Positions 578 to 14,233 of a DNA stretch of 14,982 nt are shown here, piece by piece (position 1 is the stretch's first letter; the number at the start of each line of letters is the position of its first letter). A program made the translations under genes and the position numbers. Origin of the DNA: a virus (lineage: Duplodnaviria > Heunggongvirae > Uroviricota > Caudoviricetes); the IMG/VR virus record IMGVR_UViG_2547132281_000001; one strand, 5' to 3'. Below the pieces are notes generated by a model. It saw only the letters and a program-made list of their open reading frames with translations. It had not been told where the DNA came from and did not search any database.

Positions 578-635
578 AAAAAGGGCGGCAGAGCAGTCAC
601 GGAGTAAAACTGATACCGCCAAACGTCACCAGAAA
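578..635 (-). ncRNA. dicF: DicF small RNA (ftsZ/manX-targeting sRNA of the dicB operon)
   Basis: Reverse complement of 578..635 reads TTTCTGGTGACGTTTGGCGGTATCAGTTTTACTCCGTGACTGCTCTGCCGCCCTTTTT, which matches the DicF sequence as I remember it, including the 3' GC stem and U-run. Positioned between ydfC and dicB as in Qin. Confidence 0.85.
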
Positions 636-4928: not shown

Positions 4929-4943
4929 GGTAATGACTCCAAC

Positions 4944-5447
4944 TTATTGATAGTGTTTTATGTTCAGATAATGCCCGATGACTTTGTCATGCAGCTCCAC
5001 CGATTTTGAGAACGACAGCGACTTCCGTCCCAGCCGTGCCAGGTGCTGCCTCAGATTCAGGTTATGCCGCTCAATTCGCTGCGTATATCGCTTGCTGATT
5101 ACGTGCAGCTTTCCCTTCAGGCGGGATTCATACAGCGGCCAGCCATCCGTCATCCATATCACCACGTCAAAGGGTGACAGCAGGCTCATAAGACGCCCCA
5201 GCGTCGCCATCGTGCGTTCACCGAATACGTGCGCAACAACCGTCTTCCGGAGCCTGTCATACGAGTAAAACAGCCAGCGCTGGCGCGATTTAGCCCCGAC
5301 ATAGCCCCACTGTTCGTCCATTTCCGCGCAGACGATGACGTCACTGCCCGGCTGTATGCGCGAGGTTACCGACTGCGGCCTGAGTTTTTTAAGTGACGTA
5401 AAATCGTGTTGAGGCCAACGCCCATAATGCGGGCAGTTGTCCGGCAT
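4944..5447 (-). CDS. insB: IS1 InsB reading frame (transposase C-terminal part, expressed as InsAB' by frameshift)
   Basis: 167-aa track [61 protein letters not shown]... is canonical IS1 InsB. Confidence 0.95.
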
Positions 5448-5641
5448 CCAACGCCATTCATGGCCATATCAATGATTTTCTGGTGCGTACCGGGTTGAGA
5501 AGCGGTGTAAGTGAACTGCAGTTGCCATGTTTTACGGCAGTGAGAGCAGAGATAGCGCTGATGTCCGGCGGTGCTTTTGCCGTTACGCACCCCCCCGTCA
5601 GTAGCTGAACAGGAGGGACAGCTGATAGAAACAGAAGCCAC
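5366..5641 (-). CDS. insA: IS1 InsA (91 aa)
   Basis: Track [94 protein letters not shown] is canonical InsA. Confidence 0.95.
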
Positions 5642-5818
5642 TGGAGCACCTCAAAAACACCATCATACACTAAATCAGTAAGTTGGCAGCATCACCGAAT
5701 ATTTAGACTAAAGAGTTTGTAACGCTATGTAAGTGATTTTTTCTGGTTTAGATATTTATATGTCCGGCCAAATTGAGGTGTGTTTAAATGTAATTGCACA
5801 TTGATTGTAGGAGGAATA

Positions 5819-5998
5819 ATGAAAAACGCATTGCAGTTTTTGTTTGTTGCGTTCTGGTTGTTCGTATCATGTATGCCCATCATCTTCACAGCAAGGTATA
5901 TAGAAAAAGTTGATGTTTTGATATTAATATTTGGATATATAAATGCCCTTTTTTTAGGGGTGTTCATGGCGGTCATGTGCATTGAATACTGGCGGTAA
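5819..5998 (+). CDS. Small hydrophobic protein (59 aa, two predicted TM helices)
   Basis: Strong SD AGGAGG 6 nt before ATG 5819. MKNALQFLFVAFWLFVSCMPIIFTARYIEKVDVLILIFGYINALFLGVFMAVMCIEYWR. Visibly AT-rich context. Confidence 0.5.
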   Translation: MKNALQFLFVAFWLFVSCMPIIFTARYIEKVDVLILIFGYINALFLGVFMAVMCIEYWR

Positions 5999-6256
5999 AT
6001 ACAGCGAACGCCATTGGTTTAGTTGGATATTTACTGTGCCGGACAAAAACGGTTTGCGGGGAAATCTTAGTTAAATAGAATGACTGCGGGTGCTTGAGGC
6101 TATCTGTCTCAGGCATGAACACCAAAAGGCAGATAGAGAAAAGCCCCAGTTAACATTACGCGTCCTGCAAGACGCTTAACATTAATCTGAGGCCATATCT
6201 ATGCGACACATAGAGATTAGCCTCTTACGGACCGAAAGGTCAAGGAGAAGCAGGCT

Positions 6257-6391
6257 ATGAAGCAGCAAAAGGCGATGTTAATCGCCCTGATCGTCATCTG
6301 TTTAACCGTCATAGTGACGGCACTGGTAACGAGGAAAGACCTCTGCGAGGTGGAGGTCGCTGTCTTCACAGCTTACGAACCTGAGGAGTAA
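6257..6391 (+). CDS. hokD: Hok-family membrane toxin, HokD/RelF-like but 44 aa
   Basis: MKQQKAMLIALIVICLTVIVTALVTRKDLCEVEVAVFTAYEPEE. N-terminal 31 and C-terminal 13 residues match recalled HokD. SD AAGGAGAAG upstream. A 19-codon upstream ORF ends in ATGA overlap with the start. Confidence 0.8.
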   Translation: MKQQKAMLIALIVICLTVIVTALVTRKDLCEVEVAVFTAYEPEE

Positions 6392-6461
6392 AAGACCTGG
6401 CGAGGGAGAAATCCCTCGCCACCTCTGATGTGGCAGGCATCCTCAACGCACCCGCACTTAA

Positions 6462-6486
6462 CCCGCTTCGGCGGGTTTTTGTTTTT
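6462..6486 (+). terminator. Rho-independent terminator after hok
   Basis: Hairpin CCCGC-TTCG-GCGGG followed by TTTTTGTTTTT. Preceded by a second hairpin CGAGGGA-GAAA-TCCCTCG around 6400-6418. Confidence 0.6.
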
Positions 6487-6607
6487 ATTTTCAACGCATT
6501 TGAAGTTCTGGACGGTGCCGGAATAGAATCAAAAATACTTAAGTAGCGCGCAGGGATAAGAGGGATGGTCCCTTAAAGGGGAGAGCTAATTATCCGGAAG
6601 GATTCTG

Positions 6608-9603: not shown

Positions 9604-9679
9604 GGCCCTTTAGCTCAGTGGTGAGAGCGAGCGACTCATAATCGCCAGGTCGCTGGTTCAAATCCAGTACAGCGCGCCA
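9604..9679 (+). tRNA. tRNA-like sequence with CAU anticodon (Ile2/Met type) but non-pairing acceptor stem; possibly degenerate
   Basis: D arm (GCTC/GAGC), anticodon loop CTCATAA, T arm GCTGG-TTCAAAT-CCAGT and encoded 3' GCCA are all present. Acceptor 5' strand GGCCCTT pairs with 3' ACAGCGC at only 3 of 7 positions. Confidence 0.45.
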
Positions 9680-10143: not shown

Positions 10144-10617
10144 ATACATATCTGGATTATCACCTGTTACGGTAAAAAGTTATTGCTTACTGTTTTTGTG
10201 AATGGCATTGCAGCAGCCGGATAATGTCAGTGCTGGCTGACGGTGTGCTGGTGGCGGGTGTGGTGGTTATTGCTTTCCCGTTGCTGAAAAAGAAAACGCC
10301 AGACTGTTAGCCGGGTATCAGTTAGCGGGAGAAATTTTTAAATACTTCACAATTCAGGCGGTTGACTGTTGTCTGGTTTGCGGGGAGTTTGTTAAAAGAA
10401 ACTGGCATGGTGAATCCCCCTGTGCGGAGGGGCAATCAGCGAGTAGGTATATGGGATAATCGCGGATTCAGGTGCTGGTACTGAATTCACCGGGAGGCAC
10501 CCGGCACCATGCACTTCAATAGATTCTCTCCACATTATGGATATTCTTTCAGAATATCCCACGCAGACTTTGTGTAAATGTTAACAAATGTGCGTTTTAT
10601 TTGATCTGATTCGCTGT

Positions 10618-13458: not shown

Positions 13459-13818
13459 ATTAATATTAAATCGGATTATTTTTAGCGCTGAATGTGAAAT
13501 TTAAATAAAAAGGACTCTTCCATGAGTCAAAATCCTTGAAATCTTAAGGGTAAGATAAAAGGTCATTAGACAGAATGACACGTTTTATTAATAAATAAAG
13601 CTATTGTTTCATTCGTGTGTTTTTCTTTACAAAAGTAATCCTTGCTATGGTTGGTTAATCATGCGTTAATGGTGTTCTGGTTTGTTACAAAATTATCTGA
13701 AGCAGTCATTGTTATAATTTTATTATTTGTACCTCTTGAGATTTCCTTGTTGGTTTTTCTCTCTGATATTTTTTTTCGGACCATTCTGCCCAAGGGCTAA
13801 CTTCTTCAAAAGGTAATA

Positions 13819-14034
13819 ATGATGTCTAACAAAATGACTGGTTTAGTGAAATGGTTTAACCCTGAAAAAGGTTTTGGTTTCATCACGCCGAAAGATGGTA
13901 GCAAAGATGTGTTTGTGCATTTCTCAGCTATTCAGAGCAACGATTTCAAAACGTTAACTGAGAATCAGGAAGTCGAATTTGGTATTGAGAACGGACCTAA
14001 AGGCCCTGCAGCTGTTCATGTAGTGACACTTTGA
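13819..14034 (+). CDS. cspI: Cold-shock protein CspA family (CspI-like)
   Basis: [71 protein letters not shown]; RNP motifs KGFGFI and VFVHF present. Preceded by about 360 bp of AT-rich leader. Start could be the second ATG at 13822. Confidence 0.85.
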
Positions 14035-14044
14035 GGTAGAAAAT

Positions 14045-14233
14045 ATTACAAACCATATTCACTTTAGATGCCCGTGTTGCCATGGTTCTCAGTATAGAAC
14101 ATCATCTTTTGATGTTTCTGACAGAAATCCTTTCGGGGCAAAATGTATCTTTTGTAAATCAATGATGATTACATTTGATAATATTTCACAATACTTAAAT
14201 GTTAGCCATCTGTCGTTAGATTTAAGAAAGTGA
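14045..14233 (+). pseudogene. Zinc-ribbon-like small ORF lacking a canonical start codon
   Basis: Open frame ...RCPCCHGSQYRTSSFDVSDRNPFGAKCIFCKSMMITFDNISQYLNVSHLSLDLRK* with CxxC..CxxC. Between the upstream in-frame stop and the motif there is no ATG/GTG/TTG, only ATT at 14045 and 14057. Start coordinate is nominal. Confidence 0.35.

Follow-up and report, generated by a model that had tools for sequence, protein, structure and literature searches.

A hok/sok-type module in a Qin-like prophage with a rare 21-bp in-frame deletion in its toxin gene

A short region of viral DNA raises the question of whether a hokD-like gene that stands without relBE and lacks seven codons from its centre should be regarded as an orphan toxin under some unfamiliar form of control, or as a known type of locus in which the toxin has been damaged. 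The region belongs to a stretch of 14,982 nt (IMG/VR record IMGVR_UViG_2547132281_000001), which was analysed at its full length and is referred to here as the window. According to the original prediction, the gene was an orphan hok with an apparent 21-bp deletion, preceded by a 19-codon ORF in place of relB and relE and possibly subject to a different regulatory arrangement, antisense control included. The reading favoured here, with fair confidence, is that of a complete hok/sok-type module of the HokC/D/W subgroup at 6053-6484, carrying a recent and rare deletion that probably weakens or inactivates the toxin.

The toxin gene, its gap and its prophage setting

The protein-level features considered are as follows.

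6257-6391 (+): hokD-type toxin ORF, 44 aa, without R33-T39 of the 51-aa protein (translation, alignment and Pfam)
6374-6377 (+): TACG motif (Tyr codon plus G), a candidate TadA A-to-I editing site read from the sequence, retained

Translation of 6257-6391 on the plus strand gives the 44-aa HokD form MKQQKAMLIALIVICLTVIVTALVTRKDLCEVEVAVFTAYEPEE, followed by a stop codon. When positions 6040-6500 were aligned with the hokD regions of Escherichia coli 7/2 and K-12 RP437, a single clean gap of 21 nt (ACGAATCCGAACCGGCCAGAC) was found between T6351 and G6352, corresponding to the loss of RIRTGQT, residues R33-T39 of the 51-aa HokD. The in-frame deletion that had been proposed from the sequence is thereby borne out by both the DNA and the protein comparison. 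Apart from the gap, only four substitutions separate this region from strain 7/2, and the junction itself is clean, with the reading frame preserved and no ambiguous base. Because the gap has only one possible placement, there is no microhomology at the junction. Slippage between nearby GAGGT repeats was considered as the origin of the deletion and rejected, since it would take out 27 nt rather than 21 and microhomology is absent; the converse possibility, that the gap is ancestral and the 21 nt are an insertion elsewhere, was ruled out by the fixed length of this spacer across the family.

The shortened protein is still recognised as a member of the Hok/Gef family. It scores 46.2 bits against Pfam HOK_GEF (PF01848; cut-off 22), in a match that spans profile positions 1-42 and contains an internal gap, compared with 82.9 bits for the 51-aa HokD, and it matches PHROG 251, "MokW-like host killing", at 1.4e-21. 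The family hallmarks are kept, namely the hydrophobic residues 6-25, C15, T17 and L29-C30-E31, as judged against the conserved Hok/Gef positions given in bioRxiv 10.1101/2025.08.07.668861. The resemblance to hokD is not a matter of chance, because 4,936 of 5,426 complete E. coli genomes contain homologous DNA annotated as hokD. As the DNA around the gap is approximately 99% identical to hokD, the altered spacer represents a lesion in a Hok/Gef member and does not speak against common descent. TadA editing at TACG recodes Tyr to Cys in hokC, hokD and hokE, with about 6% editing of K-12 hokD (PMC12214031).

The window belongs to a lambdoid prophage of Qin-like type, and its best match is E. coli PEC1011 (98.5% over 88% of the window). 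From left to right, the dicB/DicF region is followed by dicA, dicC, a ydaT-like gene, IS1 and the hok locus, and then by rem, a hypothetical gene, DUF968 (ydfU), rusA and Q, after which come a tRNA, the lysis genes and cspI. The same order, hokD-rem-hypothetical-DUF968-rusA-Q, is found in annotated E. coli prophages, so that the module, lying upstream of rem, DUF968, rusA and Q, occupies its usual site in such a prophage. Furthermore, hokD is present in 79 phage records, where it is labelled host killer, MokW or HokD.

Several other elements of the window were noted in passing. IS1 lies at 4929-5696, with insA (5366-5641) and insB (4944-5447) on the minus strand; it stands in place of approximately 577 bp of PEC1011, and about 390 bp separate its right end from the hok promoter downstream, which is undamaged. 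Between IS1 and the hok locus, an ORF of 59 codons with a good Shine-Dalgarno sequence (5819-5998, plus strand; MKNALQFLFVAFWLFVSCMPIIF...) encodes a strongly hydrophobic peptide; PHROG contains no match to it, and its counterpart in PEC1011 lacks a CDS annotation. Rfam searches of the window further returned the DicF sRNA (583-634, minus strand), a tRNA (9605-9676, plus strand; annotated as tRNA-Met in PEC1011), the STnc100 sRNA (10376-10566, plus strand) and a cspA-type thermoregulator 5' UTR (13664-14080, plus strand) before the cspI homologue, all of which are expected in a Qin-like prophage.

With regard to relBE, the statement that neither gene accompanies the toxin holds for the whole window, in which blastn and tblastn searches with K-12 relB and relE found no match. 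The window does not show the K-12 relBE-hokD arrangement, in which hokD stands right behind relB-relE and has no leader of its own. Homology to K-12 begins only at window position 6243, and K-12-type genomes match from that point on, whereas the full leader is common: in 3,831 of the 5,426 complete E. coli genomes, homology extends over at least 80% of 6040-6500. Because K-12 lacks everything upstream of position 6243, its copy can be regarded as rearranged, in agreement with PMC12214031, which cites Pedersen and Gerdes (1999) for the view that a rearrangement inactivated K-12 hokD. Judged by these sequence comparisons, the K-12 relBE-hokD arrangement is a derived, truncated exception and the full form is the common state. 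The normal leader had been taken as unusual in the original prediction because this rearranged K-12 copy served as the norm. The point has some general bearing, given that relBE-hokD of K-12 is often used as the reference while most E. coli possess the full leader with mok and a Sok-type region.

A complete leader, a foldable mRNA and a candidate antisense RNA

Upstream, within and downstream of the toxin ORF, the following elements were recognised.

6053-6081 (+): predicted weak hok promoter, read from the sequence; -35 TTTGCG (6053-6058), 17-nt spacer, -10 TAGAAT (6076-6081)
6088-6484 (+): predicted full-length mok-hok mRNA, ~397 nt, from a probable start at GGGTGCTTGAGG to the terminator T-run
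6088-6099 (+): tac (translational activator) at the mRNA 5' end, GGGUGCUUGAGG; predicted to pair with fbi
6135-6207 (-): predicted Sok-like antisense RNA, ~70 nt, with putative ends
6143-6149 (+): ucb, or anti-SD box, GCCCCAG, from predicted folds
6187-6193 (+): dcb, the mok Shine-Dalgarno region CTGAGGC; GAGG at 6189-6192, 8 nt 5' of ATG 6201; sequestered by ucb in the full-length predicted fold
6201-6260 (+): minimal mok-like leader ORF of 19 codons, MRHIEISLLRTERSRRSRL then stop, with its own SD and predicted coupling
6214-6243 (-): predicted Sok-type promoter, read from the sequence; -35 TTGACC (6243 to 6238), 18-nt spacer, -10 TAATCT (6219 to 6214)
6242-6247 (+): hok Shine-Dalgarno AAGGAG, 9 nt 5' of ATG 6257; conserved in a 23-locus alignment
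6338-6358 (+): coding-region hairpin containing the deletion; stem GACCUC (6338-6343)/GAGGUC (6353-6358) kept, junction between T6351 and G6352
6398-6421 (+): G+C-rich hairpin of 10 pairs just past the stop codon; by analogy with R1, the expected 3' end and protective stem of the processed, translatable mRNA
6441-6453 (+): fbi (fold-back inhibition), CCTCAACGCACCC / CCUCAACGCACCC, complementary to tac
6460-6484 (+): intrinsic terminator, stem 6460-6477, then the T-run

This canonical hok/sok layout at 6053-6484 is at odds with the notion of an orphan toxin. The 19-codon ORF starting at ATG 6201 does exist and overlaps the hok start as described, its TGA (6258-6260) and the hok ATG (6257-6259) together forming ATGA; rather than being a novelty, it corresponds to a minimal mok. 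Plasmid R1 likewise has exactly 19 mok codons ahead of the hok start, and its mok needs to be translated only as far as the region where hok initiates (PMC9841398). The hairpins and the terminator that had been noticed are likewise present, as the strong hairpin at 6398-6421 and the stem at 6460-6477 followed by its T-run. Mutations that break the stem equivalent to the former in R1 destabilise the truncated hok mRNA (PMC9841398). The deleted 21 bases were also considered as part of dcb, an assignment that was ruled out, dcb being the mok SD region.

Three forms of the mok-like ORF were observed within the hokC/D/W subgroup: 19 codons ending in ATGA, as in the window at 6201-6260; a mok in frame with hok in the common O157-type alleles (P0039 and P0131), which are annotated as a 70-aa "Hok family toxin" on at least 999 contigs each; and an overlapping mok of 68 aa in the phage Rac record MN652886 (L065, 738-944). 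The in-frame form may give rise to a toxin extended at its N-terminus.

The leader is matched by Rfam RF01794, whose full model (positions 1-157) spans 6088-6259 on the plus strand with 106.7 bits against a gathering score of 59. This family is named "sok antitoxin", and it matches the hok sense strand up to the hok AUG while the antisense (Sok) strand is unmatched; in effect, RF01794 matches mark hok leaders rather than the strand of the Sok gene.

Minimum free energy and partition function calculations for 6088-6484 predict the classical closed form of a hok mRNA. In the full-length RNA, tac (6088-6099) is predicted to pair with fbi (6441-6453) at probabilities of at least 0.93, ucb (6143-6149) with the mok SD region (6187-6193), and the hok start region with codons further 3'. 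When the RNA is trimmed back to the 6398-6421 hairpin, tac is predicted to move to ucb with a probability of about 0.5, and this alternation in ucb pairing agrees with the R1 model in PMC9841398.

Comparative support for these pairings was obtained from an alignment of 23 hokC/D-type loci from Escherichia, Kluyvera, Photorhabdus, Pantoea, Citrobacter and unnamed Enterobacteriaceae, gathered with a single-protein query. Projection of the structure onto the alignment left 86.3% of cells paired, compared with about 42% when partners were slid by 1-3 columns; pairs changed on both sides numbered 49, against 17-23 in the slid controls, and on four of five measures none of 500 shuffles came up to the value observed. 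Helix 1, formed by tac and fbi, was paired in 90.2% of cells with five pairs changed on both sides (in Photorhabdus, for instance, C-G replaces U-A), the coding hairpin at 6338-6358 (helix 12) in 93.2%, and the 3' hairpin at 6398-6421 (helix 16) in 96.8% with three pairs changed on both sides. With both tac-fbi and ucb-mok SD pairings predicted, and with compensatory changes over the 23 loci, the suggestion of a different regulatory arrangement loses its footing.

In 23 related loci, TAnnnT hexamers (TACAAT, TATAAT, TAAAAT) line up with the -10 of the hok promoter, equally far from GGGYGC; a generic promoter scan placed this promoter under its threshold, its -35 being poor. On the minus strand, the Sok promoter block GGTCAAGGAG...AGATTAGCC is conserved in the 23-locus alignment, and relative to mok and hok it lies where the Sok promoter of R1 does. 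The generic scan did not call this promoter, whose -10 matches the consensus at three of six positions. The RNA predicted to arise from it would begin with an unpaired 5' tail that is complementary to the mok start region, followed by a long hairpin with a U-rich tail. Folding of 6208 to 6128 (minus strand) gave -33.8 kcal/mol (z = -5.0), a value reached by none of 200 shuffles. The earlier guess of possible antisense control was a good one, in that a Sok-type promoter and hairpin are predicted on the minus strand. Experiments have shown sokW, the homologue in prophage Sp5, to be an antitoxin RNA (PMC8621323).

If it behaves like its homologues, hok/sok of plasmid R1 and the prophage system hokW-sokW, the module would operate as follows. 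A weak promoter would give rise to a stable mRNA of ~397 nt, locked by pairing of its 5' tac with the 3' fbi and of ucb with the mok SD. Slow trimming from the 3' end to the hairpin at 6398-6421 would remove fbi, allowing tac to take up ucb and setting the mok SD free. Ribosomes translating the 19-codon mok would then stop at the ATGA overlap, on the hok start, thereby opening the hok initiation region, while a short-lived Sok-like antisense RNA (approximately 6207 to 6135, minus strand) would bind the mok start region and block the mok step.

The deletion appears to leave this machinery untouched. The 21 missing nucleotides form the tip of the coding hairpin, and in the predicted folds the stem of the deletion allele grows to 9 bp with a GAG triloop. 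Pairing probabilities for tac, fbi, ucb, the Shine-Dalgarno sequences and the start codons are equal in the deletion RNA and the reconstructed wild-type RNA, whether full-length or trimmed. Because the loss is limited to the tip of a single coding hairpin, neither the RNA switch nor the antisense RNA is disrupted, and the regulatory RNA machinery should, according to these models, work in the deletion allele as before. Concerning the hairpin itself, the Leu29 codon is CTY (CTC or CTT) in 33 of 34 unique hokC/D sequences, a pattern much of which is explained by coding constraints.

Rarity of the allele and its probable effect on the toxin

The 44-aa protein corresponds in NCBI to WP_001356334.1 / WNT90380.1, a "Hok/Gef family protein" that forms a singleton cluster on three contigs, whereas the 51-aa HokD is found on at least 1,000 contigs in the NCBI protein cluster listing. 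A 44-aa reference HokD, which the original prediction had named as a ground for refutation, does exist, yet only as this same rare allele, and in substance the prediction of a deletion is not refuted by it. By using a 101-nt junction query, built so that coverage of at least 80% could be reached by the deletion allele alone, the allele was found in none of 5,426 complete RefSeq E. coli genomes and at none of 8,372 hokD places. A 40-nt junction query also returned no match among E. coli genomes, with low-complexity masking as a possible cause, and the exact junction pattern had no match among GTDB genomes, one per species. An identical junction with identical flanking SNPs is present on an 856-nt contig of the independent assembly GCA_002458215.1, a contig common to two samples, and the same 44-aa protein is recorded, at the level of the protein record, on a contig of 4.94 Mb. 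The allele is best read as a rare, recent in-frame mutation in a known toxin gene.

Some related variation was observed along the way. Many representatives of the 50%-identity clusters near HokC/D (P0137-P0223) are frameshifted or truncated after residues 26-40, and in sequenced genomes hokC/D ORFs appear to decay often, or else to be disrupted often by assembly error. Two further rare in-frame deletions, of 18 nt (L007, 421-615) and 12 nt (L005/L006, 3001-3144), fall inside the loop of the same coding hairpin; the former is on a short metagenome scaffold and the latter has N at its junction, so both may be artefacts; were they genuine, the tip of the hairpin would be a hot spot for deletions. 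Near-identical E. coli-type hokD (approximately 90-95%) was also recorded from unrelated hosts, on a 275-nt contig of Acinetobacter idrijaensis (L028) and a 431-nt contig of Xanthomonas pisi (L034), and likewise from Actinobacillus phage vB_Apl-pPE4 (H93), all of which look like contamination or misassignment.

What the deletion changes in the protein is the distance between Cys30 and the C-terminal EVAVF..Y(C)E block, which falls from nine residues to two; two arginines of the periplasmic tail are lost with it, and the stretch between Cys30 and the TadA-recoded Tyr is shortened. Approximately 230 Hok relatives were gathered by two database searches, of which a loose motif search could score 189, and the spacer from this Cys to the Glu of the E-V-A block measured nine residues in 179 of them. 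The ten exceptions comprise seven mis-anchored regex matches and three short-spacer alleles, namely the 44-aa allele itself (P0001), P0017, which lacks six residues and comes from a 941-nt metagenome scaffold, and P0028, which lacks four residues and whose assemblies have N at the junction. Elsewhere in the family the distance from this Cys to the block does not vary, and the deletion would therefore most likely leave the toxin weakened or inactive. In HokB, toxicity requires an intramolecular C29-C46 disulfide, and the edited equivalent in hokD is Tyr47 (PMC12214031).

Structure prediction adds little in this respect. AlphaFold2 returned one long helix each for the 44-aa peptide alone (single sequence) and for the 51-aa HokD (27-sequence alignment); in the 51-aa model, C-terminal pLDDT is below 50, which makes it uninformative on the periplasmic domain. 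A sequence search of the PDB found no solved structure of any Hok relative.

A toxin weakened or inactivated by its deletion has to be weighed against the possibility that the 44-aa Hok is still potent and the locus fully functional, the spacer between Cys30 and the C-terminal block being dispensable, in which case the module would, for instance, help to maintain the prophage or to lyse the cell upon induction in the manner of hokW-sokW. This is a serious alternative, although a clearly less probable one. The transmembrane helix, Cys15, Cys30, the EVAVFTAYE block and the TACG site are all kept, the regulatory RNA elements are intact with unchanged predicted pairing, and a lesion that is in frame rather than frameshifting is what retained function would lead one to expect. 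Moreover, Hok R1 with alanine at conserved residues (C31, E32, E41 and others) still kills when overexpressed, and toxicity was seen for 42 of the 45 diverse Hok homologues examined (bioRxiv 10.1101/2025.08.07.668861); Hok thus tolerates considerable change, and the untouched transmembrane helix counts against attenuation. On the other hand, spacer length is invariant in intact homologues even at about 38% identity, the allele, confined to three contigs, shows no hint of having spread or been selected, the Pfam score is down from 82.9 to 46.2 bits, and killing by Hok R1 at single copy is abolished by C-terminal changes, including C-terminal tags, read-through extensions, M46I and Y48N (PMC9841398). 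A related and rather speculative idea, for which the chances seem slim, is that the 44-aa HokD is not dead, acting as a working "mini-Hok" or as a membrane-inserted non-toxic variant that interferes with full-length Hok paralogues within the same cell, and that deletions at the hairpin tip may recur, as the three alleles would suggest. If such a mini-Hok works, the fixed nine-residue periplasmic spacer would be shown to be dispensable; if hairpin-tip deletions recur, they would provide a route to disabling the peptide while sparing the hok mRNA fold and the Sok RNA.

Two other explanations concern the sequence and its interpretation. The gap might be a sequencing or assembly artefact, through collapse across the hairpin or among hokD paralogues, in a strain that really carries wild-type hokD. 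The missing bases do coincide with the tip of a predicted hairpin, complete E. coli genomes contain a median of two and up to nine hokD-like places, which invites mis-assembly, and the other short-spacer variants are one with N at its junction and one from a short metagenome scaffold. An artefact is nevertheless unlikely, given that the same junction and flanking SNPs recur in the window and on the GCA_002458215.1 contig, that the 44-aa protein is recorded on the 4.94-Mb contig, and that the junction is clean and in frame with no ambiguous bases. Least probable of all is an orphan hok under non-canonical regulation, with a short upstream ORF in place of relBE. It draws on the absence of relB and relE from the window and on the difference between 19 codons upstream and the 70 of R1 mok; yet all canonical hok/sok elements are present, the Sok part as a prediction, the same leader occurs in the 3,831 genomes and 79 phage records mentioned above, and it is K-12, missing all sequence upstream of 6243, that represents the rearranged copy. 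The preferred reading accordingly remains that of a complete module with a probably weakened or inactive toxin, and the locus is properly annotated as a hokD/hokW-type hok/sok module with a mutated toxin ORF, neither an orphan nor a new regulatory type. The locus matters little beyond annotation; the allele nonetheless offers a natural test of whether the Cys-to-Glu spacer is needed for killing by Hok.

Comparison with known systems

Among the closest relatives of the locus are full-length prophage hokD loci of wild E. coli (for example 7/2 and PEC1011) and those of lambdoid phages, which occupy the same position and, for 7/2, show approximately 99% identity over 6040-6500 apart from the gap; the window differs from them only in the 21-bp deletion, the four substitutions and the IS1 inserted upstream. 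In relation to hokD (relF) in Qin of K-12, the coding sequence is identical except for the 21-bp gap, and the same 3' UTR (hairpin, fbi and terminator) and downstream genes rem, ydfU (DUF968) and Q are found. K-12 hokD lacks the promoter, tac, ucb, mok and Sok promoter, and consists of SD and ORF alone, fused behind relBE, whereas the window has the full leader minus seven codons inside the ORF.

The prophage system hokW-sokW, described by Takada et al. [quoted passage not shown] By its description, it resembles the present locus in being a prophage module of HokC/D type; it encodes a 51-aa toxin and an antisense Sok that has its own promoter (PMC8621323), the latter only predicted in the window. 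Its HokW toxin is full length, in contrast to the 44 aa encoded in the window, and hokD-type loci of O157 match the window at approximately 88-89%.

The hok/sok (parB) system of plasmid R1 shares the same order of tac, ucb, mok SD, mok, hok, 3' hairpin, fbi and terminator, together with an antisense Sok, which in the window is a prediction. HokD and Hok R1 share 42% identity over 45 residues. The R1 mok has 70 codons and runs in another frame past the hok start, whereas the mok of the window stops on the hok ATG; and while the R1 locus resides on a plasmid and encodes a toxin of 52 aa with the full spacer, that of the window lies in a prophage.
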